Shown: positions 14,784 to 64,000 of the stretch, piece after piece
Layout of the letters: each line of letters starts with the position of its first letter
How positions within the stretch are numbered: position 1 is the stretch's first letter
Source of the DNA: Patescibacteria group bacterium
GTDB lineage: Bacteria; Patescibacteriota; JAHJAL01
Direction of reading: 5' to 3'
NCBI GenBank assembly: GCA_049322675.1
Contig: JBMORM010000009.1
Location: 291,517-355,516 of the forward strand
Length of the DNA: 64,000 nt
Translations under genes and position numbers: made by a program
The notes under the pieces: model-generated
Databases searched by the model: none
Seen by the model: only the letters and a program-made list of their open reading frames with translations
Told to the model about the DNA's origin: nothing

Positions 14784-14801
14784 AATATTAAATTCCCAAT
14801 T

Positions 14802-14913
14802 TTCAAGGCACAATTTCCAATAAATTCTCAATTTCCAATTTTCAAACGGATTTATTTTTTGAAATTGATCATTGGAAATTTTTTGGAAGCTGGAAATTGG
14901 GAATTGGAAATTT
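14802..14913. repeat. TTCCAAT/ATTGGAA-rich intergenic palindromic repeat (copy A)
   Basis: An imperfect inverted repeat built from ATTTCCAA units flanks a central spacer. It belongs to the family seen again at 15706, 24036, 40250, 45968, 48020, 49140 and 52292. Confidence 0.6.
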
Positions 14914-15652
14914 ATTTTGAATAGAATCTTTTTATTTCTGGCGCTTTGAGCAATCGATAATGTCCCTTGGGGAGGTCGCCGAGTTTGAGATGACCGATCC
15001 GGACTCTAATCAACTTTTGTACCTTCAAACCGACGTTGTGGCACATGCGATATATTTGATGCTTTTTTCCTTCATTGATAGTGATATTAAAACTGATTTT
15101 TTCTCGATCAACTCGAATATTTGTAACATCGGCTGGCTTGGTAAGATAGCCAGAGATCAAAACACCTTTAGTTAACTTTCTGATTGATTCTTCCAGATCC
15201 AAGTCATCAAATCGACTTTTGGCGATAACAAAATATTCTTTACCAATGTGATGTTTGGGATGAGTCAGATAATTGGTGAACTCACCATCGTTGGTCAGTA
15301 TTAACAACCCTTCGGTATCTTTATCCAAACGACCGACGGGATAAACGGGCGGATTGTATGGCACGAGGTCGGTGACTTTTCGGTCGGCATGAATATCAAA
15401 TCTGGTTGAAACATAACCGGCCGGTTTGTGCAGTAGATAGTATATTTTTGACTGAGTCTGAATATTCTTTCGTCCTACTTGGATACGATCAATAGTAGGG
15501 TCAACTTTGGTCCCGAGCTTGTCAACAACGTGACCATTGACCTTGATCAAGCCTTCTTGAATCATGTCTTCGGCCTGCCGACGGGAAGCGACTCCGCATT
15601 GGGAGAGATATTTTTGAAGGCGAATTTTGCTATCAGTGTTTTTCATTGCCAT
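14912..15652 (-). CDS. Pseudouridine synthase, RsuA/RluB family, with an S4 domain
   Basis: An S4 domain is at the N-terminus (LQKYLSQCGVASRRQAEDMI). The catalytic block is RLDKDTEGLLILTNDGEF. Confidence 0.8.
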   Translation of the reverse strand: MAMKNTDSKIRLQKYLSQCGVASRRQAEDMIQEGLIKVNGHVVDKLGTKVDPTIDRIQVGRKNIQTQSKIYYLLHKPAGYVSTRFDIHADRKVTDLVPYNPPVYPVGRLDKDTEGLLILTNDGEFTNYLTHPKHHIGKEYFVIAKSRFDDLDLEESIRKLTKGVLISGYLTKPADVTNIRVDREKISFNITINEGKKHQIYRMCHNVGLKVQKLIRVRIGHLKLGDLPKGHYRLLKAPEIKRFYSK

Positions 15653-15705: not shown

Positions 15706-15845
15706 TAATTCCCAATTTCCAATTCTCAATATTCAAAAAATGTCCAATTTCCAAACGAATGCCAAAAAGAATCATGAAACCAAATTAGTTTGGAAATTGT
15801 GCTTTGGAAATTTATTAGAAATTGAGAATTGAAAATTGGAAATTA
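15706..15845. repeat. TTCCAAT-rich intergenic palindromic repeat (copy B)
   Basis: The left arm cccaatttccaattctcaatattcaaaaaatgtccaatttccaaa mirrors the right arm tttggaaattgtgctttggaaatttattagaaattgagaattgaaaattggaaatt. Confidence 0.6.
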
Positions 15846-15869
15846 TTGGTATTTTTCCACAGGTGTTCA

Positions 15870-15898
15870 TTGACTTTATTCTTGTTGATATGTATAAT
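15870..15898 (+). promoter_or_regulatory. Near-consensus sigma70-type promoter (TTGACT-17 bp-TATAAT)
   Basis: TTGACT is at 15870-15875. The 17-bp spacer is ttattcttgttgatatg. TATAAT is at 15893-15898. Confidence 0.55.
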
Positions 15899-15904
15899 GT
15901 TATG

Positions 15905-16155
15905 ATACTAGAAAATGAGATGTTTATCTAGTATCCCCTTCAAAGGAGGGCAATACAATACGATACTCGAAAGTTTTTTCAAACAAAAACAAAAAAATAT
16001 AAACGAAAAAACTTTCAAACAAAAAGAAAAAAACAAAAATAAATCATAACTTTCGAGTATTGTATTTCACAAACAAAAAGGAGAATATATGTGTCGTATT
16101 ATCCTTTAGAGGAAGAAAAATAATCAATCAAAAAGAAATATCTTACGGATATGAG
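15905..16155 (+). ncRNA. Candidate structured ncRNA of unknown class, forming an orphan promoter-to-terminator unit
   Basis: It sits between a consensus promoter and a strong terminator, with no sizeable + strand ORF. There is a 5' hairpin (gatactag...ctagtatc). A long-range helix (caatacaatacgatactcgaaagtt ... aactttcgagtattgtatt) encloses an A/C-rich ~70-nt loop with a duplicated CTTTCAAACAAAAA motif. Confidence 0.3.
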
Positions 16156-16156
16156 C

Positions 16157-16190
16157 AGGTTTTTGAACCTGTTTTTTTTATTTTTTATAG
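16157..16190 (+). terminator. Rho-independent terminator
   Basis: The hairpin CAGGTT-tttg-AACCTG is followed by TTTTTTTT. Confidence 0.6.
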
Positions 16191-17105: not shown

Positions 17106-17107
17106 AG

Positions 17108-17180
17108 AAAATTTTTAATTTTTAATTTTTAATTTTTAAACGATTTCTGTTTAGAAATTAAAAATTAAAATTTAGAATTG
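17108..17180. repeat. AT-only palindrome (aatttttaattttt... / ...aaattaaaaattaaaattt) between folD and the PBP gene
   Basis: An inverted repeat made of TTTTTAA units. A possible weak terminator. Confidence 0.4.
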
Positions 17181-17187
17181 AAGATCG

Positions 17188-23972: not shown

Positions 23973-24035
23973 TATTTTTTATTTAGCTTGAAAACAAAAT
24001 TTTGAATATTGGATAGTATTTACGAGTTTTGTCTT

Positions 24036-24112
24036 AATTTTCAATTTTCAATTTCCAATTTCCACTAAATGATCAATTTTCAATGAGAATGATTAGTTTG
24101 GAAATTATTAAT
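24036..24112. repeat. TTCCAAT-rich intergenic palindromic repeat (copy C)
   Basis: ttttcaattttcaatttccaatttccac...gattagtttggaaattattaattgaag. Confidence 0.5.
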
Positions 24113-24126
24113 TGAAGATTTTGTTA

Positions 24127-27069
24127 TTATTTTACGACAATGTTTACTATCTTTCCCTTAATATAAATTTCTTTGACAATTTCTTTGCCGGTGATAAACT
24201 TTGTTACTTCGGGAGTTGATTTGGCAAGGGAAATGATTGTTTTTTCTTCAAGGTCGGCGGCAATAACAATTTCCGCCCGTCTTTTGCCGTTAACTTGAAT
24301 AGGAATTGTCAGAAGTTCTTCTTTGACTAGATCAGGATCGTATTGCGGCCAAGTCATGAGATTGATTGAATTGTTGTGACCCAATTGATGCCAAAGTTCT
24401 TCGCAAACATGGGGACAAATTGGAGAAAGCAATAACAATAAACCTTCCAGGGCTTGTTTCCAAGCCAGGGGATCTTTGGCAAGAGGAAATTTTTGTTTCA
24501 GATCGTTGAGGTCGTTAACAAAAATCATCAGATTGGAAACAACGGTGTTGAAGCTAAATTTGTCATACAAGGAGCTGATGCGCTTGATGTTTTTGTGTAC
24601 AAGAGAAGCCAATTCGACTTCTTTTATTTCTGACGAGTCATAGAGCCATTGGTCGGGGGTTTCTTGGATCTTTTCGTTTACCAAAATAATTTCTTGTGCT
24701 AACGTCCACAGTTTGAATAAAAATCGATTGACGCCTTTGACGCCGTTGGTATCCCAAGGAATGGCATCGGTATAAGGACCCATAAACATTTCATAGCCAC
24801 GCAAAGTATCGGCTCCGTATTCATCAATTACTTCTATGGGATTGATAACATTGCCCTTGGATTTGGACATTTTTATACCACCTTCTCCAAGAACCATGCC
24901 ATGAGCGATGCGTTTTTGGTAAGGTTCGGAAGTCGGCACCAGGCCTTGATCAAAGAGAAATTTGTGCCAGAAACGGGAATACAGAAGATGCAAAGTAACA
25001 TGTTCCATTCCACCATTGTAAATATCGACCGGAGACCAATATTGTAATTTTTTGTAATCAGCAAAAATATCCTCATTATGAGGGTCGCAATAGCGAAGAT
25101 AATACCAGGAAGATCCTGCCCAGTTGGGCATAGTGTCGGTTTCGCGTTTGGCCGGACCACCGCAAGTTGGACAAGTAGTATTTACCCACTCGTCAATCGA
25201 GGCCAAAGGTGATTCGCCGGTATCGGTTGGTTGGTAATTTTTGACGTCTGGCAAGATTAAAGGCAAATCTTTTTCTGGCAAAGGAATAGTGCCACATTGT
25301 TCACAATAAACAATTGGAATCGGTTCGCCCCAATAATGCTGGCGGGAAAAAACCCAATCGCGGAGATTGTAATTGACTTTCTTTGATCCTAGTTTTTGTT
25401 CTTGTAACCAAGTAATTATTTTCTCTGTGGCAATAGCCGAATCCAATCCGGAAAATTCGCCCGAATCATGAGTGACACCATAATCAGAGAATAGTTTGGA
25501 GTTATTAAAAAATCTTTCTTTCCAGATATTAAATTCTGAGCAATTTAGATTTGGATCATGTTCCAATTCATCCCAAGTAAGCCAAATTAGATCGTATTTT
25601 TCTTGCTCATCGGCAGAGATGGATTGCTGTTGATTATCTATAAGCTCAAAGACCAAAGCAGTAAATAATGCTTGTCGGTTTACGTCTTTATGGGCGGCAT
25701 AAAAATTGGACTGAACTGGTAATCCTAGCGTTTTGATAAATTTTAAATTAAAAAATCCCGTTTCTTCGGCGATCTCTCTTTGAGCGGCAGCGATAGTATC
25801 CTCTCCTTCTTCGATACCTCCTACAATTAATGTAGTCCAAGGAAATTTTTTATGTCGAAGGCACAATATTTTTTTTGTCTTTGGATCAATAACAATGGCC
25901 TGGATTGCTTGTCGAAATACAGTAGATTTATCGTCTCGCAGAGGATGTTTGGTATCAATTATTTTGGGAATAATTACTTCTTTGATAGGCAAATCGTATT
26001 TGGAAGCAAAATCCCAATCGCGTTGATCGTGAGCAGGGACGGCCATGATGGCGCCGGTGCCATAGTCGGCCAGAACATAATCGGCAATCCAAATTGGTAT
26101 TTTCTCATTATTGATTGGATTAACCGCATAAGAACCAGTAAAAACACCTGTTTTTTCTTTATTTTCTTGGCGTTCGATATTGCTTTTGGCAAGCGAAAGC
26201 TTGACATACTTGTCCACATCTTTTTTTTGTTCGGGAGTAATTATTTTTTCAATCAATTCATGCTCAGGTGCCAAAACCATAAAAGTAACGCCAAATAAGG
26301 TGTCAGGTCTGGTTGTAAAAACTTCTAAATATTTATCTTTGAGTTTTGAGTTTTGAATTTTGAATTTGATACTTGCCCCTTCCGATCTTCCGATCCAGTT
26401 GGCTTGTTGATCTTTAATCGCAGGCAGATAATCAACATCCTTGAGACCATTTAATAATTTGTCCGCGTAGGCAGTAATTTTGAGCATCCATTGAGAAAGC
26501 TCTTTTTTGGTTGTGGGCGTGCCGCAACGCTCGCAATTGCCGGCAATTACTTCTTCGTTGGCTAAGCCCGTTTTACAAGAAGGACACCAATTGATTGGCA
26601 TCTTTTTTTTGTAAGCCAAACCGGCTTTGTAAAGTTGCAGAAATATCCATTGGGTCCACTTGTAGTATTCAGGTTTGGAGGTGTCAATTTCCCTCGACCA
26701 ATCGAAGGAAAAACCGACACGTTGAGCTTGTTTTTTAAAATTGGCGGTATTTTTGGCGGTAACGATTGTCGGATTGATCCCGTGTTTGATGGCATAATTT
26801 TCGGTTGGCAGGCCAAAAGCATCCCAGCCAAAGGGGAAAAGAACATTGTAACCATCCATACGACTTTTGCGTGCGACGATATCTAAAGCAGTATAAGGAC
26901 GGCAATGACCGACGTGCAGACCTTCGCCGGAGGCGTAGGGAAACTCGATCAAAATATATTTTTTGGGCTTGGAGGAAGAGTCTTGGCCTTGATATATTTT
27001 TTCTTCTTCCCAGACAGATTGCCATTTGGGCTCTATTTCTTGCGGATTATAATTTTTTTGTTTATCCAT
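24127..27069 (-). CDS. leuS: Leucyl-tRNA synthetase carrying an internal Nudix-domain insertion
   Basis: Present are the HIGH-class motif (HVGH), KMSKS, an editing-domain block TTRPDTLFGVTFMVLAPEH and the conserved C-terminal domain. At 980 aa it is longer than the roughly 860 aa of E. coli LeuRS. Confidence 0.9.
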   Translation of the reverse strand: MDKQKNYNPQEIEPKWQSVWEEEKIYQGQDSSSKPKKYILIEFPYASGEGLHVGHCRPYTALDIVARKSRMDGYNVLFPFGWDAFGLPTENYAIKHGINPTIVTAKNTANFKKQAQRVGFSFDWSREIDTSKPEYYKWTQWIFLQLYKAGLAYKKKMPINWCPSCKTGLANEEVIAGNCERCGTPTTKKELSQWMLKITAYADKLLNGLKDVDYLPAIKDQQANWIGRSEGASIKFKIQNSKLKDKYLEVFTTRPDTLFGVTFMVLAPEHELIEKIITPEQKKDVDKYVKLSLAKSNIERQENKEKTGVFTGSYAVNPINNEKIPIWIADYVLADYGTGAIMAVPAHDQRDWDFASKYDLPIKEVIIPKIIDTKHPLRDDKSTVFRQAIQAIVIDPKTKKILCLRHKKFPWTTLIVGGIEEGEDTIAAAQREIAEETGFFNLKFIKTLGLPVQSNFYAAHKDVNRQALFTALVFELIDNQQQSISADEQEKYDLIWLTWDELEHDPNLNCSEFNIWKERFFNNSKLFSDYGVTHDSGEFSGLDSAIATEKIITWLQEQKLGSKKVNYNLRDWVFSRQHYWGEPIPIVYCEQCGTIPLPEKDLPLILPDVKNYQPTDTGESPLASIDEWVNTTCPTCGGPAKRETDTMPNWAGSSWYYLRYCDPHNEDIFADYKKLQYWSPVDIYNGGMEHVTLHLLYSRFWHKFLFDQGLVPTSEPYQKRIAHGMVLGEGGIKMSKSKGNVINPIEVIDEYGADTLRGYEMFMGPYTDAIPWDTNGVKGVNRFLFKLWTLAQEIILVNEKIQETPDQWLYDSSEIKEVELASLVHKNIKRISSLYDKFSFNTVVSNLMIFVNDLNDLKQKFPLAKDPLAWKQALEGLLLLLSPICPHVCEELWHQLGHNNSINLMTWPQYDPDLVKEELLTIPIQVNGKRRAEIVIAADLEEKTIISLAKSTPEVTKFITGKEIVKEIYIKGKIVNIVVK
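25510..25947 (-). other. Nudix hydrolase domain inserted in-frame within leuS
   Basis: A perfect Nudix box GGIEEGEDTIAAAQREIAEETGF is encoded at + 25757-25821, inside about 140 extra residues between ..IKEVII and ..SGEFSGLD. Confidence 0.7.
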
Positions 27070-40182: not shown

Positions 40183-40212
40183 TATCAATATTAAAATCGA
40201 TCGCAAATATTG

Positions 40213-40242
40213 ACCTCGGATATAAATATCTGAGGTTTTTTA
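40213..40242 (+). terminator. Rho-independent terminator
   Basis: acctcggata-taaa-tatctgaggt is followed by TTTTTT. Confidence 0.5.
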
Positions 40243-40249
40243 TTAAATT

Positions 40250-40375
40250 CTAATTTCCAATTCTCAATTTCCAAAAAATGTCCAATTTTCAATTTTCAAA
40301 CATTATTGAATTTAACTTGGAAATTGGACATTTTTTGGAAATTGAAAATTGTGAATTGGAAATTTTGTGCAGCTA
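40250..40375. repeat. TTCCAAT-rich intergenic palindromic repeat (copy D)
   Basis: aatttccaattctcaatttccaaaaaatgtccaattttcaattttcaaac mirrors cttggaaattggacattttttggaaattgaaaattgtgaattggaaatt. Confidence 0.6.
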
Positions 40376-40417
40376 CTTGTATAATTATGTTTGTATATAT
40401 TCAAATTAAACTGAATT

Positions 40418-40990: not shown

Positions 40991-40997
40991 TTCATTA

Positions 40998-41090
40998 TTG
41001 AATTTCCAATTTTTCCCTCACGGGACTTAAGCTGCTGCTGGCAATTTATAATTTCCAAAGGAAAATCTCTTTGAAAATTATAAATTGAGC
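40998..41090. repeat. TTCCAAT repeat variant with a conserved GC core (CCCTCRCGGGA...GCTGCTGCTGRCAATTT...GAAAATCYC..TTTGAAAATT), copy 1 of 2
   Basis: About 70 nt are shared with 45968-46078. The loop of the small hairpin ccc-tcRc-ggg differs between the copies while the stem is kept. Confidence 0.5.
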
Positions 41091-41265
41091 CATTTTTGGA
41101 GAGAAAATTGTTCTTGGCTTTCAGCGAAAAGGTAAAATGATGCTTGAATGTGTATTTAACAAAAAAATTGTCGCAGAAATTTTTTTGTAGAGGAGGAGGC
41201 GTTCTGGTAGTGGAGTGAGAGACGGTATTCCGGCTCGCACGGAACGATAAGAACGACTCCGACGC

Positions 41266-45489: not shown

Positions 45490-45967
45490 TCCCAATGACT
45501 TTTTGCGACAAAAAATGAAAAAAGTCGAGGTGTTTGATCGCAACTTGCAGCAATTTGCTCGTGATTTTATTGAGACTATGTTGGAAAAAGATGGGGTGGG
45601 ATTGGCCGCAACCCAGATTGGCGCAAACAGGAGAATTATCGCTATCAATTTGGATAAAAAAGAGGGTTACCCGGATAGTTTGATTATGCCGATGGTTTTG
45701 GTTAATCCGGAGATTTTGGAAGCATCAGCTCAACAGGTTGAAATGGATGAGGCCTGCTTGAGCGTACCGGGCCTGGTCGGATCAGTAATCCGACCAGAAG
45801 AAGTGATCGTTACCTATCAAGATTTAAATGGAAAACAATATCATGTTGATGCCGATGGTTGGCTGGCAAGAGTATTACAACACGAGATTGATCATCTAAA
45901 CGGAATTTTATTTATCGATAGAATTTCAGACAAGAAAAAATTGCGGAAATATGAGGTGAAAGAATAA
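45473..45967 (+). CDS. def: Peptide deformylase
   Basis: GVGLAATQIG, EACLSVPG and QHEIDHLNG are present. The start is set at the internal Met (MEILTNPNDFLRQ) rather than the track's longer ORF. Confidence 0.85.
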   Translation: MEILTNPNDFLRQKMKKVEVFDRNLQQFARDFIETMLEKDGVGLAATQIGANRRIIAINLDKKEGYPDSLIMPMVLVNPEILEASAQQVEMDEACLSVPGLVGSVIRPEEVIVTYQDLNGKQYHVDADGWLARVLQHEIDHLNGILFIDRISDKKKLRKYEVKE

Positions 45968-46078
45968 TTTCCGGTTTCCAATTTCCAAAAAATTTCCAAT
46001 GATTCCCTCGCGGGATCGAGTTGCTGCTGACAATTTTCAATGAAAATCCCGTTTGAAATTGGATATTGAGAATTTCTT
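45968..46078. repeat. TTCCAAT repeat variant with the conserved GC core, copy 2 of 2
   Basis: tttccaatttccaaaaaatttccaatgattCCCTCGCGGGAtcgagtTGCTGCTGACAATTTtcaatGAAAATCCCgTTTGAAATTgg. The matching copy is at 40998-41090. Confidence 0.5.
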
Positions 46079-46101
46079 GAAGAAAATAATAACTAATAGA
46101 A

Positions 46102-47037
46102 ATGAATATTTGCGATCAAAAAATCGTTTTTATGGGAACGCCCGAGTTTGCGGCGGGGATTTTGCAATCTCTGCTGAATAACAATTTTAACGTTGTCGGG
46201 GTGGTGACGGCACCGGATCGGCCAAAGGGGCGGGGACAAAAGATAGCAATGTCCGAAGTAAAGGAATTGGCGTTGAAAAACAAATTAGTTGTTTGGCAAC
46301 CGGATAAAGTTAGATCCGAAGATTTTTTTCAGAAGCTAAAAGATATACTACCGGATTTGATCATAGTGGCCGCATATGGTCAGATAATACCAAAGAAGAT
46401 ATTGGAATTGCCCAAATTTGGGTGCATTAACGTGCATGCTTCCCTGCTCCCAAAATATCGCGGTGCTTCGCCGATTCATTATGTCTTGCTCAATGGCGAA
46501 CAGGAAACCGGGGTTACTATTATGAAGATGGATGAGGGAATGGATACGGGGGAGATAATTTCCAATTTCCAATTTCCAATTTCCAATAAAGACAATCTGA
46601 TTTCTTTATACGAAAGGTTAGCTAAAATAGGAGCGGAATTGTTGGTCAAGACAATACCGGATTATATAGCGGGGAAAATTGAATTGAAAAAGCAGGACAA
46701 TAATCTGGCGAGCTACACGAAGATAATTACCAAGTCTGACGGTAAAATTGATTGGAATATGAAGGGACGAGATATTTTTAATAAAATCAGAGCATTTAAC
46801 CCCTGGCCGGGTACTTTTACCAATTGGCAAGAAAGAAAATTGAAGATTCATTCTGCAAGGTTGACTGAGAGGAAATTTTCACCAGGTGAGGTTATAGTTG
46901 AAGACAAAAAAATTTACGTGGGAACGGACGATTTTGCTCTGGAAATTATAGATTTACAACTTGAGGGAAGAAAAACTGTCTCAGCCGAGAATTTTGTGTT
47001 GGGAAATAAGGAGATAGATAAAGCCAAGTTGTTATAA
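46102..47037 (+). CDS. fmt: Methionyl-tRNA formyltransferase
   Basis: KIVFMGTPEFAAGIL, NVHASLLPKYRGASPI and a C-terminal domain are present. Confidence 0.85.
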   Translation: MNICDQKIVFMGTPEFAAGILQSLLNNNFNVVGVVTAPDRPKGRGQKIAMSEVKELALKNKLVVWQPDKVRSEDFFQKLKDILPDLIIVAAYGQIIPKKILELPKFGCINVHASLLPKYRGASPIHYVLLNGEQETGVTIMKMDEGMDTGEIISNFQFPISNKDNLISLYERLAKIGAELLVKTIPDYIAGKIELKKQDNNLASYTKIITKSDGKIDWNMKGRDIFNKIRAFNPWPGTFTNWQERKLKIHSARLTERKFSPGEVIVEDKKIYVGTDDFALEIIDLQLEGRKTVSAENFVLGNKEIDKAKLL

Positions 47038-47935: not shown

Positions 47936-47961
47936 TCTCTAATAAATTGAAAGTAACAAAT

Positions 47962-47991
47962 AATACCTCCGGTTGGGGGTATTATTTTTTT
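47962..47991 (+). terminator. Rho-independent terminator
   Basis: aatacc-tccggttggg-ggtatt is followed by a T-run. Confidence 0.5.
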
Positions 47992-48019
47992 GGATTAATA
48001 AATATAATTAGAATAATAG

Positions 48020-48144
48020 AAATTTTCAATTCTCAATTTCCAATTTCCAAAAAATTTCCAATGATCAATTTCAGATGGATGATCTGCTTGGAAATTGGAA
48101 ATTGAGATTTTTTTGGAAATTGATCATTGGAAATTGGAAATTAA
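48020..48144. repeat. TTCCAAT-rich intergenic palindromic repeat (copy F), ending at the start codon of the next gene
   Basis: A nested perfect inverted repeat (ttccaatgatcaatttc / gaaattgatcattggaa) is present. The element abuts the ATG at 48145. Confidence 0.6.
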
Positions 48145-49139: not shown

Positions 49140-49262
49140 CAATTTTCAATTCTCAATTTCCAAAAAATGTCCAATTTCCAATTTTCAATGAATGCGATCT
49201 GTTTGGAAATTGTGCCTTGGAAATTTTTTGGAAATTGGAAAAAGGAAATTGGAGATTTATTA
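49140..49262. repeat. TTCCAAT-rich intergenic palindromic repeat (copy G)
   Basis: caattttcaattctcaatttccaaaaaatgtccaatttccaattttcaatg ... tttggaaattgtgccttggaaattttttggaaattggaaaaaggaaattgg. Confidence 0.6.
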
Positions 49263-49280
49263 TAAATTATAAATTGAATT

Positions 49281-50219
49281 ATGTTTTACGCAATTACCAT
49301 TGATGGGCCAGCGGGCAGCGGAAAAAGTACCTTGGCCCGAAATTTGGCAAAAGAACTAAAAAGTTTTGCAGTCGTTGATACCGGCGCCTACTATCGTTGG
49401 GCAACGCATTTGGCGCTGGAAGAAAAAGTGGACTTATCCAAACAAAAAGTTTTGATCAAGGCGGTCAAGGAAAAATTGACTTTGGATTTTATGCCCTACA
49501 ATCAGAACAATAAGAAATATACAAAATATGCGGCAAAAGTATTGTTTGAAGGTAAAGACATCAATGAAAAACTTTATACCAAAAAAGTAACGGACAATGT
49601 TTCTATCGTAGCGGTTTATCGGCCGCTCCGGGTAATAATTAAAAACAAGATCAAAGAGTTGGCCAAACAGAAAAATATTATTGTCGCCGGACGAGAAATT
49701 GGCACTTATGTTTTGCCAAAGGCGCAAATCAAGTTTTTTATCGAACCACAGATTGATGTCAGAGTTCGACGGCGCTATAAAGATTATGTTAAAGAAGGAC
49801 GCGCAGTCTCATTGAAAGAGTTGAGAGAAAATATTGAAAAACGCGATTATTTGGACAAAAATCGGGAATACAATCCTTTGGCAAAACCTGATGATGCTTT
49901 TGACATAGATAACACCAATTTGTTGCCATCACAGACTTTGAAAGAGGCACTGGACTATATTTACAGAAAAGAGCCGGAGATTAAAAAAATTAAAGATCAG
50001 ACGGTAAAAGAATTGAAAACAGAGGCGCCAAAAGCGACAGCTAGCAATTGTAATGGCAGCAGTTTTCAATCTCCCCTACTGGGATTTGATACTTCGCCTG
50101 TTTCTGCACCTTCTTCAACTTCGACAGTTAAGAGCGAATCAATTAAGGAATTGAAAAAGAGGTTGAAAGCAAAATACAAATCAGATCAATCCGGCGGGAG
50201 TTTTTGGCAGAAACGTTAG
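49281..50219 (+). CDS. cmk: Cytidylate kinase with a C-terminal extension
   Basis: AITIDGPAGSGKSTLARNLA is the P-loop. The core is cmk-like, followed by an unassigned tail of about 90 aa. Confidence 0.75.
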   Translation: MFYAITIDGPAGSGKSTLARNLAKELKSFAVVDTGAYYRWATHLALEEKVDLSKQKVLIKAVKEKLTLDFMPYNQNNKKYTKYAAKVLFEGKDINEKLYTKKVTDNVSIVAVYRPLRVIIKNKIKELAKQKNIIVAGREIGTYVLPKAQIKFFIEPQIDVRVRRRYKDYVKEGRAVSLKELRENIEKRDYLDKNREYNPLAKPDDAFDIDNTNLLPSQTLKEALDYIYRKEPEIKKIKDQTVKELKTEAPKATASNCNGSSFQSPLLGFDTSPVSAPSSTSTVKSESIKELKKRLKAKYKSDQSGGSFWQKR

Positions 50220-50253
50220 AATATATATTTCCAATTTATTGTTTTCAATGTCG

Positions 50254-50279
50254 GGCGGGTTTAAAACCCGCCCCTACGT
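50254..50279. repeat. GC-rich hairpin GGGCGGG-tttaaaa-CCCGCCC followed by CTACG, the same family as the hairpins inside trmD
   Basis: The shared 3' end is CGCCCCTACG. The element is very GC-rich relative to its surroundings. Confidence 0.5.
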
Positions 50280-50303
50280 TATGTCAAAAGACCACAAAAA
50301 AAC

Positions 50304-50335
50304 TCCCGGCATATACGTTTGGACGGGAGTTTTGC
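50304..50335. terminator. Bidirectional hairpin terminator AAAAAAACTCCCG..CGGGAGTTTT, copy 1
   Basis: The stem pairs CTCCCG with CGGGAG and has A- and T-runs on either side. A near-identical copy lies at 51345-51392. Confidence 0.5.
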
Positions 50336-50360
50336 TTTGATTATGAAAAAATTGAAGACT

Positions 50361-51266
50361 TTACTTTTCATAATGATGCAGTTTGTTATATATACTACTT
50401 TCTTTGTTTCTAAAAAATCCTTTTTGATTATCAGGTAATAGATCGGCGATTTTTTGACCAACCATATTTGCTTGTTCTCTCAGTTGTTTTATCACTTCAC
50501 GAAAATCGTCTCTTTCCTTTTGGGTTATTTTCTTTCCTTCTGATCTTTTGTAGAAAACCTCTTCGATGATATTTATTTTCGCAATTTTTTCGAGGGTTAT
50601 CGGTTGGCCGATATGAAAGATTGCTTTTCCATTGGCTTTACCCAATATACCTTTGGCAATATTGACTAGACCTTCCAAACTAATTGAGTTGCCGACAATT
50701 TCTAGGGCGGTCGGAATAATTTTTGTACCAGTTTTTTGGGCTAAATATATTGCTCCGATTTTTGGTTCTTTCATCTCTCCATCTTCATTGAAAGCATGAA
50801 TGGCTATCCATGGAGTTTTGCCGATTTTGATTCTTTCAAATATAGTCTCAAAATTTTTTGGATTAAACACTCCCGATTTTCCTTTGTTGGTTTTGTGATA
50901 ATCGAGGGGGATAAAGTTTTCTTCACCGCCAGTCCGAAATAACAACATACGCTGGGGGGCAAAACGGCGAAACGAAGATGATTCTGCGGTAATCTGCATG
51001 TCGAAAATATCTCCCAATGATTTAATGGCAGCAGGGGCGTCCAGATTGGAAAAATGTGAAGAAGCGATGACATATTTGTTCTCTGGATGTTTTTCTATTT
51101 CTTCTTTAATATTCTCCCTTCCCTCTACTTTAAATTCATTACAAAATTGATTTATCAGCAAATCACCCAGAGACCGCAATCTAAAATCGGTAGTCTTGCG
51201 GTTTTCTTCCACTTTGACGGTTTTGTCCTGGTTTTTAGAATAAAATTCTCTAATCTTACCTAGCAT
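50361..51266 (-). CDS. Lysophospholipid (1-acyl-sn-glycerol-3-phosphate) acyltransferase-family protein
   Basis: The HxxxxD acyltransferase motif (ASSHFSNLDAPA) is present. Confidence 0.6.
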   Translation of the reverse strand: MLGKIREFYSKNQDKTVKVEENRKTTDFRLRSLGDLLINQFCNEFKVEGRENIKEEIEKHPENKYVIASSHFSNLDAPAAIKSLGDIFDMQITAESSSFRRFAPQRMLLFRTGGEENFIPLDYHKTNKGKSGVFNPKNFETIFERIKIGKTPWIAIHAFNEDGEMKEPKIGAIYLAQKTGTKIIPTALEIVGNSISLEGLVNIAKGILGKANGKAIFHIGQPITLEKIAKINIIEEVFYKRSEGKKITQKERDDFREVIKQLREQANMVGQKIADLLPDNQKGFFRNKESSIYNKLHHYEK

Positions 51267-51344
51267 TGAATTTTTTATTAATTTAATTTTAAATCTGATT
51301 ATTGTAGCATAATTTCTTGATTATTTCCAGATATAAATTGGCAT

Positions 51345-51392
51345 AAAAAAACTCCCGGCATATGCGTCGGCGGACACGTAGATGGCGGGAGT
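51345..51392. terminator. Hairpin terminator, copy 2 (AAAAAAACTCCCGGCATATGCG...GGGAGTAAAAAAG)
   Basis: The stem is the same as at 50304. The loop contains CGGCGGACACG. On the minus strand it is followed by a T-run, directly after the stop at 51400. Confidence 0.5.
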
Positions 51393-51399
51393 AAAAAAG

Positions 51400-52176
51400 T
51401 TAGTTTTTGTTTTGATTTTGATTTTTTCCACACCCTACCCCAGGGTCTGGCAAGGTGTGAAAAATGCCGGCGGAGGACCGATCGTCCTCCTTTCTCATCC
51501 GCCAATACCATTTATGGTAATAGGGTGAGAAAAATATTGTTATTACCGTAAATAAAAACAGTAACAATAATAAAAGAAGGTGATCGGTTAAAACATTAAA
51601 ATTACTTGCCACCCAGCCGGCGAGGGCGGCGAAGAGAATGGAAATTCCCCAAGAAATGAAATAATCTAGTGGCAATCCCCCTACCCACGGGGACTTTGAA
51701 TGCCACCAGATATTTTGTGGTTTAAATTTTTCCCACTTATAATGGGGATTTAATATAAACCATAAAAAGTCCCAAAGGCACATGGCGACAAAGTACATGG
51801 CCAATGAGACTAATTCCCCTTTCAAACTCCATGCCAACCCCATGAAAAATTGGACATGGAATATCAAAAGAGGAAAAATGAACATAAAGGAGTGATAACC
51901 TGTCAGTGGTCTCCCTCCTAAAATTTTCATATAAATCTTTGCGGCCAGGCCCCTGGTACGATACCAGGTTGGCATCTTTTCGGCCCAACCGCACTTTCCC
52001 TCGGCCTCGACTTCTATGCCGGCGAGGACGAGGCAAAAAAGAAAAAAGAAGCCGGCTTTTAATAATAAAAAGGAGAAATGCAACATGCAAATCCCCTCCT
52101 TTCTTGAAAAAATTCGTTGCGACAAGAAAGACATGCAAAAAATATTATTACTAGCTGAAAAAATATTTCTTGCCAC
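51400..52176 (-). CDS. Hypothetical polytopic membrane protein (start uncertain)
   Basis: Several TM helices are present (..FFFLFCLVLAGI.., ..FIFPLLIFHVQFFMGLAW.., ..ISILFAALAGWVA..). Confidence 0.4.
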   Translation of the reverse strand: MARNIFSASNNIFCMSFLSQRIFSRKEGICMLHFSFLLLKAGFFFLFCLVLAGIEVEAEGKCGWAEKMPTWYRTRGLAAKIYMKILGGRPLTGYHSFMFIFPLLIFHVQFFMGLAWSLKGELVSLAMYFVAMCLWDFLWFILNPHYKWEKFKPQNIWWHSKSPWVGGLPLDYFISWGISILFAALAGWVASNFNVLTDHLLLLLLLFLFTVITIFFSPYYHKWYWRMRKEDDRSSAGIFHTLPDPGVGCGKNQNQNKN

Positions 52177-52291
52177 AACTTTTTAATGAACAAAAGTGGC
52201 TTTATTGTAGGGCTTTTTCGGTTAATTTGCTAGGGATTCATATTTTGTGAATATGGGAGAAAAATAGTATTATATAAGATAGTGGTTAGCG

Positions 52292-52404
52292 TAAATTTCC
52301 AATTTCCAAGGCTCAATTTCCAAAAAATTTCCAATAGTCAATTTCCAAATGATATAATTCATTGAAAATTGGACATTTTTTGGAAACTGGAAATTGGAAA
52401 TTTA
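52292..52404. repeat. TTCCAAT-rich intergenic palindromic repeat (copy H), just upstream of secA
   Basis: gtaaatttccaatttccaaggctcaatttccaaaaaatttccaatagtcaatttccaaatg ... attggacattttttggaaactggaaattggaaattt. Confidence 0.6.
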
Positions 52405-52427
52405 ATTTTTAATTATTAATTTTAAAT

Positions 52428-60581: not shown

Positions 60582-63500
60582 ATGAAAAATAAAGTATTTT
60601 TTGGTCTTGCGATCTTGATTGGTATCTTGCTTCCCACCATTGAGGTAAGGGCACAAGTAGCCGGTGAGGATATTCCTCGAGAACAAATTCAGACAAAGAT
60701 TATTCAATTGGCGGATGTGGAGATAGTTGACCCAAAAATACTTAAACAAAAGGATAATGTTGTTACCTTGTCTTGGCAGTTGACCAATGGTGACAATGTT
60801 CAGCCAGATGTCAATTATGGCGTAAAGCTGGTGAAATACATTGGCACAGATAAATTTTTGGTTGACGAATATCATTATGATCATGTGCTAAATATGGTCG
60901 CTGAGGAGAAAATTGATTTGGAGGCGGAATACAAGGCTCCCGCATATCTACAAGGCAAATACGAAATATGGATAAATGCCTTCAACAGCAATTCTATGAC
61001 TTTTGGTTTGGCTAGAGCGGGAGATATTGAATTGAATGGTAATGGCAAATATGTAGAAATCGAAACGCAAAGTTGTTTTTTGACCTTGGAAGGTGACGAA
61101 AACCAGACTTCTTACCAACCGTTGCAGGGTTTAACTGTCGATTCCCAAGAAAAATTATTGGCTCACTGTCCGACCAAAAATCTATTGGGAAAAGAAGCCA
61201 AAATAATCGGGAAGATTCAATTGTTTTATCGGTCGTTGGCCGGAGAAGAGATTGCTTCCGATACTAAGGATGATATGTTGACTTTGAAAATTGACGAAGA
61301 AAGAGAATATGTCCAGTTGTTGCCAAAACCACTTGATGCTAAACCTCAGGCTTATGAAGCTGTGTTAAAGTTTTTTGATGAACAAGGTCAACCAGTATCA
61401 AATATGGTTGTTTTTCATTTTGTCTTGACTGGTCCATCTGCCACCATACAAAATGTTACTTTGGACAAAGATGGTTACAAAAAGGGCGATATAGCACAAG
61501 TAACAGCTTATTGGACGGGAGCGGCAGACGACTATTTGAATTCCAGGTTAAAAGAAGGCGGCACACTGAATGAGTTGCAGATGATTTTGGAATTGAAAAA
61601 CGCTGAGGGACAAAGTTGTACAGAAATAAAGAAGGAAGTGTGGCCGATTAATACTGACAAACAAAAGGTTATCAGTTTGCCAATTGACAGAGAATGCACT
61701 CGACCAAATGTGATTTTGAGCTTGGCTGATAGCGACAGCGGCAAGATTTTGGACGAAAAAAAATATGATATCGTTACGCGACAGGACAATAATCGTAATA
61801 ATCTGATTTTAATCCTGACAATATTGTTGATTATAGTTGGTTTGATTTTGGTGATATGGTTTAGGAAAAGAGTAAAAGGAATTCACTTGTGGGTAGGTCT
61901 TTTTTTGGGAGTCGGAGCTTTATTTTTTTCCAACAAAGTCTATGCCAAAACATTTTTGGTAGAGGCGACCTGGGGAGCCACTACTATTGGAAGGATAGAA
62001 TATACCGTTAGTTTGGATAAAGCGACTTATGTTCAGGATGATCCAATGACTTATAGCATTTCCGTCAAAGATGCCAATTGTTTGAATCATTCTGCTCAAT
62101 CTGATTTTTTGGTCTGGATTGATGATGCTTTTGTCGCAGACGGAGATCATGGTCAGACCGATCCACAAAATCAGGCGGAAAGTTTGACACTGGGTGACAC
62201 AACATTAAATAATCCACCGAGTAATTTTGATGATAGTTTTTCTTCGATCGGGTTTATTGCTTCTCATGCTCCCAATGATTTGTCAAATCCGTATCATTTT
62301 TTACAAAGTCGTTTGGATGTAAGTATCAATTATGCTCCCGACCCGGGCAACCTGCATGATTTTGGACCATATTTTAGTTATAGTTCCGGTTTTGATATAC
62401 CTTATGTCATCAAGAGTGACCCGACTCCTCCGGCTCCACCACAAACTCTAACTGATCCAATAACCTATTTGGATAAAGATGTAACTGTTAATAATCCTCA
62501 ACCGGAATTTCCTTTAGAAAATTATACTCTTCGATATGAGAAAAGGTGCGACAGCGGCAATCCGATTGTAGATTTGCATTGGGAAAAATTTGATCAGGCG
62601 ACGCAGTATTATCTGGTCAGGAACAATAATCCAATCACGAGTATGTGGACAAATTATAGTTATGATTTGGGTGACGGTGGATTTATCGAAGGAGCCAAGA
62701 TGGAAGTGAGGGGTGATTATATAAAATACACTCAGGGTTTGACATATCAGGATCAAATAAATCCTTGCGCGGCAACTTGTTTTGGCAATGCAGCTTGTGT
62801 TAATGATTCAAATTGGGACGGAGTAATCGACACAACTCCATATTATTCAATTCGCGATTTGGATAATGACAGTACGGCGGATATCAATGATGTGGATTTT
62901 GGTTATGCTTCTCTACCTGACATAGACAATGACTTGGATAATGATGGCCTAACCAATGATGTTGATCCGGATATTGATAATGATGGTATATCAAATGACT
63001 TGGACCCGGATGATGACAATGATAGCGTCTTGGATATTTATGATGTTGATTGGGACAATGACCAAATAGTAAATTTGTTGGACCCAGATAGTGGAGGCGG
63101 GCAGAGTGATCTGGATAATGATTTGGACGATGATGGTCTGACCAATGACGTCGATCCAGATATTGACAATGATGGCACCTCAAATCAGGGTGGTAATGAT
63201 TGGGATGAAGACGGGATAGAAAATGATATCGATGTTGATGACGATGGCGATGGGATAGCTGATGCAGACGAGGTGGACACTGACGAAGATTTGGACAATG
63301 ATGGCTTGATCAATGATCAGGATCGGGATAACGATGGAGATGGTATTTTAAATTCAGAGGATGAAGACAATGATAATGACGGGTGGACAAACGATCTCGA
63401 CCCGAATAGCCGTGGCGGTAATCACAGTGACTGTTCAGCAGAGTATAGAGTCTATGCCCATGTTCCGATTATTAATTACAAAATGACTGTGGCGAGCGAA

Positions 63501-64000
63501 ACGCCGACGACGGTTGATTATGACTTACAGCTGGTGTTTTGGCCTGTGACGGAAAGATTTTTGTCTCATTACCGATTTCCGAGTTATTCGGTCGGATCGG
63601 CCAATACTGTACTTGTTCCTATGTATTGTTCCACTCCTGGACAACCGCCGGTAGTTGAAGAAATAAATTTGACAACCAGCGTGGATTGTTCCGATTATGA
63701 AAATCCAGAAGTCAATCTTGATTGGTCGGTGGTTTCTGATATCGAAAGTACGCACATAATCAAATTTGATGTTGACAATTATCCGCCGCGAAATATTTTG
63801 GCGATCAATCCAGTTACAGATACCGGTCTTGATGATGCGGCAATATCAAATAATAATACTTACGGGTACTATGTTCAGATAAAAAAGACAAGTGGCGAAT
63901 ATTTGTATTCCAATGAAAGAAAAGTAGTTGTCCAATGTACTCCTCCTGCACCAGATACTCTGACAATTGCCGGTGGTTGCAGCCAATGCAGCCAAGGCAA
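60582..64000 (+). CDS. Giant cell-surface protein (partial, >1139 aa, continues past the window end) with a signal peptide, an internal two-helix membrane hairpin and Asp-rich thrombospondin-type-3-like calcium-binding repeats
   Basis: The ATG is at 60582 and the signal peptide is MKNKVFFGLAILIGILLPTIEVRA. I found no stop by hand translation through 64000. The track lists no + ORF here, which is consistent with an open frame truncated by the window edge. The internal hairpin is LILILTILLIIVGLILVIWF-RKRVKG-IHLWVGLFLGVGALFF. Confidence 0.55.
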   Translation, partial: MKNKVFFGLAILIGILLPTIEVRAQVAGEDIPREQIQTKIIQLADVEIVDPKILKQKDNVVTLSWQLTNGDNVQPDVNYGVKLVKYIGTDKFLVDEYHYDHVLNMVAEEKIDLEAEYKAPAYLQGKYEIWINAFNSNSMTFGLARAGDIELNGNGKYVEIETQSCFLTLEGDENQTSYQPLQGLTVDSQEKLLAHCPTKNLLGKEAKIIGKIQLFYRSLAGEEIASDTKDDMLTLKIDEEREYVQLLPKPLDAKPQAYEAVLKFFDEQGQPVSNMVVFHFVLTGPSATIQNVTLDKDGYKKGDIAQVTAYWTGAADDYLNSRLKEGGTLNELQMILELKNAEGQSCTEIKKEVWPINTDKQKVISLPIDRECTRPNVILSLADSDSGKILDEKKYDIVTRQDNNRNNLILILTILLIIVGLILVIWFRKRVKGIHLWVGLFLGVGALFFSNKVYAKTFLVEATWGATTIGRIEYTVSLDKATYVQDDPMTYSISVKDANCLNHSAQSDFLVWIDDAFVADGDHGQTDPQNQAESLTLGDTTLNNPPSNFDDSFSSIGFIASHAPNDLSNPYHFLQSRLDVSINYAPDPGNLHDFGPYFSYSSGFDIPYVIKSDPTPPAPPQTLTDPITYLDKDVTVNNPQPEFPLENYTLRYEKRCDSGNPIVDLHWEKFDQATQYYLVRNNNPITSMWTNYSYDLGDGGFIEGAKMEVRGDYIKYTQGLTYQDQINPCAATCFGNAACVNDSNWDGVIDTTPYYSIRDLDNDSTADINDVDFGYASLPDIDNDLDNDGLTNDVDPDIDNDGISNDLDPDDDNDSVLDIYDVDWDNDQIVNLLDPDSGGGQSDLDNDLDDDGLTNDVDPDIDNDGTSNQGGNDWDEDGIENDIDVDDDGDGIADADEVDTDEDLDNDGLINDQDRDNDGDGILNSEDEDNDNDGWTNDLDPNSRGGNHSDCSAEYRVYAHVPIINYKMTVASETPTTVDYDLQLVFWPVTERFLSHYRFPSYSVGSANTVLVPMYCSTPGQPPVVEEINLTTSVDCSDYENPEVNLDWSVVSDIESTHIIKFDVDNYPPRNILAINPVTDTGLDDAAISNNNTYGYYVQIKKTSGEYLYSNERKVVVQCTPPAPDTLTIAGGCSQCSQG
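62890..63420 (+). repeat. Tandem DxDxDG-type Asp-rich repeats (TSP3-like) inside the giant ORF
   Basis: DNDLDNDGLTNDVDPDIDNDGISNDLDPDDDND ... DNDLDDDGLTNDVDPDIDNDGTSN ... DEDLDNDGLINDQDRDNDGDGILNSEDEDNDNDGWTNDLDP. The DNA is correspondingly repetitive (gataatgatgg units). Confidence 0.55.

Follow-up and report, generated by a model that had tools for sequence, protein, structure and literature searches.

Correia elements of Neisseria, RUP elements of Streptococcus pneumoniae and ERIC/IRU elements of enterobacteria are non-coding sequences of about 100-150 bp with inverted terminal arms. These miniature inverted-repeat transposable elements (MITEs) occur as many intergenic copies near gene starts and differ in their insertions between related genomes; their ends can provide a -35 box, and the transcribed copies make long hairpins. 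Here, we describe a comparable repeat family in a stretch of 64,000 nt from a Patescibacteria group bacterium (GenBank assembly GCA_049322675.1, contig JBMORM010000009.1), which is called the window and from whose first nucleotide positions are counted. This family, the heptad repeat, consists of non-coding palindromic elements of 79-141 bp that are assembled from 7-bp units. It resembles the bacterial MITEs in its size, inverted arms, intergenic niche, putative donation of a -35 box, mosaic inserts, and gain and loss of copies: the elements are non-coding and far shorter than about 500 bp, they carry terminal inverted repeats, related copies are dispersed (nine and one variant), and their insertions are polymorphic. 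In contrast to Correia, RUP and ERIC elements, to which it has no sequence similarity, the heptad repeat has arms that are 7-bp arrays with a 4-bp phase shift rather than a unique inverted repeat, no central site resembling that of integration host factor was noticed by eye, no cognate insertion sequence is present in the window, and the host is a bacterium of the Patescibacteria (candidate phyla radiation, CPR) with a reduced genome.

Contiguous 7-bp repeats are also known as protein binding sites: the omega repressor of inc18 plasmids such as pSM19035, a ribbon-helix-helix protein, binds contiguous direct and inverted 7-bp repeats at promoters. The heptad repeat likewise contains contiguous 7-bp repeats, direct and inverted (51 heptads; lag-7 autocorrelation 0.474). 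However, its unit is TTTCCAA and not WATCACW, it is chromosomal with about ten sites per 64 kb, it forms a regular palindrome that includes a loop and an 11-mer, and no omega-like gene was identified. With the Rickettsia palindromic elements (RPE) it shares in-frame members or half-members in genes, i. e. in a glycosyltransferase gene of the related loci L067/L117/L118 and as a run in fmt; unlike RPE, the coding sequence holds single arms only, and the fmt run is not an insertion.

For repetitive extragenic palindromes (REP) and the structures built from them, REPINs and bacterial interspersed mosaic elements (BIMEs), we used the features given in two reports (PMC3116915, PMC3337134). As described there, REPINs are similar to the heptad repeat in having two inverted units around a spacer, an extragenic hairpin of about 100 nt, long vertical persistence at their sites and lineage-specific variants, and BIMEs in their mosaic combination with other short motifs. 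The heptad repeat is no REP, since it has neither a GC-rich palindrome nor a GTAG-type 5' tetranucleotide and its units are AT-rich tandem heptads, and it differs from REPIN systems with a REP-associated tyrosine transposase (RAYT) in that no RAYT gene lies within the window. The TIGR arrays of Tas systems in CPR bacteria and phages are tandem, with variable dual spacers, box C/D-like flanks and an adjacent tas gene (PMC12045711). This identity is excluded for the heptad repeat: its copies are dispersed, they form no tandem array and have no variable spacers, and no Tas protein was recognised among the annotated genes. The heptad repeat is of a kind already known, but it cannot be assigned to a named family; what is new is that it is built from heptad arrays with a nested GC-rich module and that it is so abundant in a CPR bacterium with a streamlined genome. 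Neither a description of dispersed repeat families in CPR bacteria nor an occurrence of the repeat sequence was found in the literature searched.

Copies and anatomy of the heptad repeat

A preliminary description had listed nine copies built from TTCCAAT/ATTGGAA in the window, and direct inspection shows that the sequence agrees with it at all nine positions, including 14802-14913. The copies, a tenth variant and related features are given below; for the elements, no orientation relative to the neighbouring gene or to the plus strand can be defined, the forward and reverse alignment scores being in conflict between copies.

14790-14914: full element that fills the rlu-trmD spacer (nhmmer E 5e-32); the stop codon of rlu (14912-14914) lies within its right terminus, TAAATTTCC (minus strand)
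15706-15846: full element with a longer loop of 56 nt (E 4e-28), placed 54 nt ahead of the rlu start; a promoter-like site on the plus strand has its -35 box about 24 nt away
17106-17184: variant tenth copy with an unchanged layout, absent from the earlier list, that fills the PBP2-folD spacer; 90% complementary arms with (TTTTTAA)x4, the loop, and then TTAGAAA, TTAAAAA, TTAAAAT and TTAGAAT; adjoins the folD ATG (17105)
24034-24122: copy whose left arm is full and whose right arm is short and degenerate (E 2.5e-16); neighbours are leuS and a polysaccharide-synthesis gene
40245-40366: near-perfect palindrome with 51-nt arms, 86% complementary (minimum free energy of the RNA -51.9 kcal/mol, z -10), between the terminator at 40212-40237 and the promoter of the 40418 gene
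40995-41108: short variant copy with TTTATAA heptads (E 1.2e-6); a 28-nt GC-rich module, TCCCTCACGGGACTTAAGCTGCTGCTGG (41014-41041), lies within a heptad
45966-46084: variant copy between def and fmt (E 1.6e-12); a 27-nt GC-rich module (46004-46030) lies within a TGAT^CAA heptad, and the left terminus provides the def stop codon
46557-46586, plus strand: in-frame heptad run in fmt with four perfect AATTTCC units, arm-related sequence
48019-48144: full element ahead of the dac start, 95.2% identical to its orthologue in the relative L031
49139-49260: full element (E 2e-34) that follows the dac stop (49134) and precedes the promoter-like region of cmk
52290-52409: full element (E 3e-27) in a divergent spacer ahead of secA (ATG 52428), with (TTTAATT)x4 after it
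40212-40237, plus strand: canonical intrinsic terminator (context only), hairpin kept in the relative L105
47958-47987, plus strand: canonical intrinsic terminator after the KH-domain gene (context only), kept in the relatives L031, L147, L151 and L105

The repeat exceeds chance expectation. TTCCAAT occurs 61 times in the window as compared to 34.2 +/- 5.8 times in dinucleotide shuffles, none of which (0/100) reached 61, and AATTTCCAA with at most one mismatch yields 140 matches versus 91 +/- 9.7, the matches being tightly clustered. An nhmmer profile made from seven copies and run on the window recovered all nine listed loci and the heptad run within fmt, and nothing else at E<=1; the E-values range from 2e-34 to 2.5e-16 for the full copies and are 1.6e-12 for the copy at 45968 and 1.2e-6 for that at 40998. 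The arrangement of the copies as imperfect inverted repeats around a spacer is borne out by computed arm pairs at seven of the nine: an inverted-repeat search returned arms of 42-54 nt, 74-86% complementary and 14-56 nt apart, at 15706, 40245, 48021, 49136 and 52292; the pairs at 14823 and 24036 are shorter (23-24 nt, 83% complementary). The copies can be aligned end to end, loops included, with pairwise identities of 70-83%. Within the elements, the lag-7 autocorrelation of 0.474 contrasts with a value of 0.300, without a peak, in the 4 kb of other intergenic DNA. About 2% of the window and about 24% of its intergenic DNA belong to the elements, and 9 of the 32 spacers of at least 50 nt hold them. 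An independent Logan contig is 100% identical across 49212-52322 and terminates within two copies; this contig, together with an orthologous copy in another metagenome-assembled genome (MAG), rules out an assembly artefact. Short-read contigs of the same organism break within copies as well, which is the behaviour expected of a multi-copy repeat.

The repeat unit is a heptad of the form xxxxCAA. If the arms are cut after each CAA, 51 units of 7 nt and 16 of 11 nt are obtained, among the former TTTCCAA (23), TTTTCAA (11), TTCTCAA (5) and TGATCAA (3). Each arm consists of two to four heptads, one 11-mer AAAAT[G/T]TCCAA (4 nt and a heptad) and then one or two further heptads; it is followed by a loop of 14-18 nt (longer at 15706) and by the mirror-image arm, so that the 4-nt phase shift is placed symmetrically in both arms. 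On both sides, the outer ends read (T/C/G)AA(A)TTTCCAA. The 'special' heptads GGCACAA and TGATCAA occur in one arm only, at positions that vary among the copies and with no mirror in the partner arm. This unilateral and variable placement bears out the earlier impression that modular arms are shuffled between copies. A second kind of mosaicism is seen in the elements at 40995-41108 and 45966-46084, which carry a GC-rich insert of 27-28 nt, TCCCTC[A/G]CGGGA...GCTGCTG[G/A], between xxxx and CAA of one heptad. This module (TCCCTCACGGGA...GCTGCTGCTGG, a 4-bp stem with a tetraloop) was found only nested within a repeat heptad, at 41014-41041 and 46004-46030 of the window and at 6023-6049 of L031, with a constant orientation with respect to the CAA strand, and it is polymorphic in the orthologous copy between the KH-domain gene and dac, being present in L031 and absent from the window.

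The heptad run inside fmt (46557-46586) encodes ISNFQFPISN and is conserved at the nucleotide level in the 68%-identical fmt of L105. It is degenerate in L031, and the more distant L106 (54% relative) has (AATTACA)x4. An in-frame insertion as the origin of this run was rejected since the length of the protein is unchanged and the run is conserved in L105. Slippage in this 7-nt repeat would shift the reading frame.

Distribution and turnover among relatives

Outside the window, a scan of genome collections with the 18-mer TTCCAAAAAATKTCCAAT returned mostly chance single matches among the matches listed; the useful loci among them are L031/L099 (one MAG), L045 and L067. Members of the family are present in L045 (a MAG labelled Saccharibacteria), in L067 (a Paceibacteria MAG) and in metagenome contigs, and at least 13 motif clusters were seen in 12 of 34 loci among the matches listed. 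The repeat family was not found in viral contigs or in phage or plasmid collections. Single arms occur in relatives immediately upstream of start codons, e. g. twice in L135; those in L135, L151 (a stub), L142 (secA) and L152 lie upstream of genes and read TTGNNAA toward the start codon. The arms in the glycosyltransferase gene of L067/L117/L118 are single and in frame, too. In distant relatives, heptad arrays of other sequence are located directly upstream of starts, i. e. (TTGAWTA)x6 before secA, (TTGTTAA)x3-4 and (TTCCTAA)x4 (L142 10887-11035; L152 6200-6250; L156 8303-8366 and 20284-20357), and the intergenic lag-7 autocorrelation of these relatives is slightly raised (0.35).

The dac gene, for the D-Ala-D-Ala carboxypeptidase, gives a measure of the distances: at the nucleotide level, the sister genomes L031 and L147 are 0.90 identical to each other and 0.83-0.84 to the window, followed by L151 (0.76), L105/L152 (0.73) and L106/L156 (0.67). 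Over this range, copies come and go. Five copies of the window are missing at the matching sites in relatives, and thus the family shows the presence/absence polymorphism between related genomes that the preliminary description had proposed to look for. The def-fmt copy (45966-46084) is missing in L031, which is 86-90% identical in nucleotide sequence and in which def and fmt overlap (ATGA). The rlu-trmD spacer has no counterpart of the 14790 copy in L153 (38 nt) and L154 (8 nt), the 15706 copy is missing upstream of rlu in L153, and the PBP2-folD spacer is without an element in L153 (49 nt) while it holds (TTCCTAA)x4 in L156. At the 40245 site, L105 has only AAAATTTC-GGT-GGAAATTTT, which looks like the two outer ends of the 40245 element joined to each other.

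At the site between the KH-domain gene and dac, L031 has a 95.2% identical copy, with no mismatch in the right arm and with the additional 27-nt GC-rich module. Its sister L147 has a copy at this site as well, but of another variant, in which the heptads are TTTTCAA/TTTATAA and the spacer is TCAA and not AAAA; this copy is 0.77 identical to the dac-cmk copy of L151 but only 0.68 and 0.58 identical to its orthologues in the window and L031, respectively. Finally, L151 has a two-heptad stub, and L105 has no element. A variant has thus been replaced by another at the KH-dac site between sister genomes. The dac-cmk spacer is occupied in the window and in every relative checked (L151, L105/L152 and L106), down to 54% protein identity, and is the oldest occupied site. 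The heptads of these copies read TTTCCAA in the window, TTTTCAA/TTTATAA in L151, TTTTCAA/TTCTCAA in L105/L152 and TTTTAAA in L106, with the layout unchanged. The family thus gains copies and loses others by erosion or replacement, and its heptads change their sequence in a concerted, lineage-wide manner.

Gene context and the origin of the family

The genes of the window are ordinary housekeeping and accessory genes of a Patescibacteria MAG. That most copies lie upstream of gene starts, as had been stated, is true but uninformative, because nearly all spacers of the window are tail-to-head and only two convergent ones are available for comparison. The surroundings vary from copy to copy. The match to the TrmD profile begins at residue 17 of the 262-aa open reading frame (ORF) and places the true start at ATG 14783; the earlier claim that trmD is over-extended into the 14802 copy was correct, as was the statement that the copy at 48020-48144 adjoins the next start codon (ATG 48145). 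The 14790 and 17106 elements occupy the whole intercistronic spacers (rlu-trmD and PBP2-folD); as no space is left for a promoter, transcription has to pass through them. The 48019 copy follows the terminator at 47958-47987 and a TATAAT-containing stretch that is conserved in four lineages; since it lies downstream of this stretch and ends at the dac ATG, it is probably the 5' leader of dac. For 48019, 14790 and 17106, a promoter role is impossible. The 40245 copy sits between a terminator and a promoter and is therefore probably not transcribed; its terminal TTGGAA (40356) is located 18 nt upstream of TATAAT (40380-40385), and the TGGAAATTTTG...TATAAT block of the 40418 promoter is kept in L105, a relative that does not have the full element; the overlap with the -35 box is thus conserved at this promoter. 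TTGGAA is found at -35 distance from a -10-like hexamer at 40245 and 49139 and, weakly, at 52290; the 52290 and 15706 copies are in divergent regions. In addition to the start regions, gene ends are affected: the stop codons of rlu (14912-14914, TAAATTTCC) and def (45965-45967, TAATTTCC) lie within element termini. The C-terminus of Def reads YEVKE* in the window and YQIKNNNQEK* in L031, and this difference indicates that the insertion gave the protein a new C-terminal sequence and undid the overlap of def with fmt. A role of the arrays as Shine-Dalgarno sequences was rejected by eye, as relatives show GGAG-type sites before several starts whereas the arrays reach only GGA.

Which process, then, created this family? 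The copies have a common descent: their shared complex architecture and the similarity of their loops indicate one source rather than local independent expansion, and the many lineage-specific gains indicate that the family propagates. On balance, we consider it probable, and rank first among the explanations, that the heptad repeat is a lineage-specific, propagating, non-autonomous palindromic mosaic repeat of the MITE/REPIN/Correia kind in a clade of Patescibacteria, of which some copies have been co-opted. New copies would arise between genes while older ones are replaced or erode; the copying would be carried out either by a trans-acting enzyme encoded elsewhere in the genome or by hairpin- or recombination-based copying, and they would survive only in permissive places such as gaps between terminators and promoters, 5' leaders and intercistronic spacers. 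Some may have acquired host roles: the outer TTGGAA may serve as the -35 box of the 40418 gene and the 48019 copy as the leader of dac, and the 14790 and 17106 copies would be transcribed in operons as long AU-rich hairpins. Among the possibilities named in the preliminary description, the 'MITE-like mobile palindrome' is thus the best supported, by gain and loss at no fewer than five sites and by the shared architecture and loops.

Several observations weigh against this explanation. No transposase, RAYT, recombinase or other candidate for a mobilising gene was found among the window genes, and a pair of arms flanking a gene was not seen in any locus examined. A duplication of TA at the insertion site fits two filled/empty pairs (def-fmt and rlu-trmD), but T precedes AA(A)TTTCC in only 9 of 20 termini and the flanks are AT-rich. 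The complementarity of an arm to its own partner (mean 23.75) does not exceed that to the arms of other copies (mean 26.3), and the own partner ranks first of six for the 40245 copy only; co-evolution of the hairpin within each copy was rejected on these grounds, and the absence of better own-arm pairing is unexpected for recently transposed hairpin elements. Moreover, the identity between the 48019 copy and its orthologue in L031 is 95%, as compared to 66-83% at the surrounding third codon positions. This conservation, together with the persistent occupancy of the dac-cmk spacer, suggests a constraint at the level of the host over purely selfish DNA.

In another explanation, named in the preliminary description as a 'reiterated operator array', the heptad arrays would be reiterated double-stranded DNA sites for a sequence-specific protein, be it a global regulator or a nucleoid or partition-type protein, with one protein unit on each heptad as in the omega repressor. 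The palindromic arrangement and the symmetric 4-bp phase shift would then reflect the geometry of the complex, and the heptads would co-evolve with the protein in each lineage. The poor own-arm pairing and the unmirrored GGCACAA and TGATCAA heptads agree with such a role, as do the lack of a sense-strand advantage in RNA folding, the probably untranscribed 40245 copy, the single TTGNNAA arms upstream of genes in L135 (twice), L142 (secA) and L152 and in the L151 stub, the gene-proximal arm of 48019 with its complete identity to L031, and the constancy of the architecture while the heptads vary (TTTCCAA, TTTTCAA/TTTATAA, TTTTAAA). However, no candidate DNA-binding protein was found, and no obvious small DNA-binding partner is present among the window genes; the elements keep no fixed place with respect to promoters (ahead of the -35 box, within a 5' leader, or filling an intercistronic spacer); arms lie in frame inside coding genes; and relatives lack the arrays before the same housekeeping genes, so the arrays are dispensable. 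We regard this explanation as rather unlikely; it is compatible with mobility, since the protein could be the transposase. A bolder form of it, to which we give still less credence than to any reading but the refuted one discussed below, holds that the heptads (TTTCCAA, TTTTCAA/TTTATAA, TTTTAAA, TTCCTAA and TTGAWTA), in palindromic as well as in single-armed arrays, are the units of a genome-wide cis-regulatory or chromosome-structuring code in this clade, read one heptad at a time by a putative protein that co-evolves with them. If this were true, the mobility of the elements would rewire the regulon in genomes with very few classical regulators.

Alternatively, the elements might act as RNA: the transcribed AU-rich hairpins would terminate transcription, protect the upstream mRNA from 3' exonucleases or be cut by RNase III, so that neighbouring genes are expressed independently of each other; such effects have been reported for REP, ERIC and Correia elements. 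The predicted hairpins of six full copies are indeed strong (-31 to -52 kcal/mol, z -3.4 to -10), the read-through of 14790 and 17106 is unavoidable, 48019 falls into the dac leader downstream of the conserved TATAAT stretch, and the dac-cmk interval has no other terminator. In addition, the three left-arm substitutions between the window and L031 at 48019 (A>G, A>G and C>T) would, as read from the alignment, be compatible with wobble pairing in the sense RNA. Yet, the sense RNA is more stable than the antisense RNA in just 4 of 9 scorable copies (4 vs 5), i. e. strand bias gave no signal of selection at the RNA level; arm pairing within a copy is no better than between copies; and the stem of the L031 copy tolerates a 27-nt insert. 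Rfam 15 offers no family either: only tRNA-Leu reaches the gathering score in the window, and the elements have sub-threshold matches to generic miRNA-precursor hairpins on both strands. The 'REP-like insulator or terminator' that had been considered before is, as a terminator, unneeded at the two sites with canonical terminators upstream (40212-40237 and 47958-47987), and 40245 lies outside any obvious transcript; insulator or terminator action could take place after dac and in the rlu-trmD and PBP2-folD spacers. As an account of the whole family, RNA-level action appears improbable and cannot be universal, even though an RNA-level role is likely for the copies that are certainly transcribed. 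In contrast, the view that the elements are unrelated low-complexity AT-rich sequence, independent microsatellite expansions or an assembly artefact is already refuted. The units are short and AT-rich, and relatives have differing heptad arrays, but the copies align over their whole length and share the 11-mer, the loops and the architecture, the profile gives E-values down to 2e-34 with no matches outside ten loci, orthologous copies exist in independent assemblies, and the remaining intergenic DNA has no lag-7 signal.

Neighbouring features and significance of the family

Other features of these spacers and genes were noticed. The folD-rlu spacer contains a candidate small transcript on the plus strand (15870-16183), antisense to its neighbours and with no match in Rfam. 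It has a sigma-70-like promoter TTGACT-17-TATAAT (15870-15898, 11/12), a conserved stretch, the long-range stems ATACTCGAAAG/CTTTCGAGTAT and GATACTAG/CTAGTATC, an AAGGAG site before a 6-codon mini-ORF (MCRIIL*) and a terminator at 16153-16174 plus T8. The candidate is conserved in four lineages, the counterparts of the mini-ORF being MCPIIL* in L153, MCRIIL* in L154 and MCDIVA* in L156. Within leuS, a minus-strand gene, there is a tandem heptad of different sequence, (TTTGAAT)x4.3 (26338-26367, 95% matching); LeuS is unusually long (980 aa) and gives weak NUDIX-like matches at residues 384-451. At the end of the window, a long ORF in frame 1 of the plus strand (60900-64000) runs past the border and encodes more than 1,030 aa with a transmembrane-like stretch and many Asp-rich repeats of the DxDxDG type. 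Relatives harbour a second, GC-rich palindromic repeat family, TGTCATCC[C/T]...GGATGACA (L156 10718-10921, L106 509-620, L147 1385-1420, L152 6140-6200 and L146 3550-3610). As the rlu-trmD spacer holds this GC-rich palindrome in L156 and the heptad element in the window, the spacer seems to be a repeated landing place.

The genomes of CPR bacteria are small and densely packed, and here one repeat family accounts for about 24% of the intergenic DNA in 64 kb. The heptad repeat breaks short-read assemblies and misleads gene callers, as seen for the trmD start and for the stop codons of rlu and def in element termini, and promoter and 5' leader sequences overlap with it at fmt, dac, cmk, secA, trmD and folD, which are core genes. 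The family turns over between close relatives, it provides a marker for strain-level evolution in uncultured lineages, and it may help to find a new mobilising enzyme or a heptad-binding regulator.

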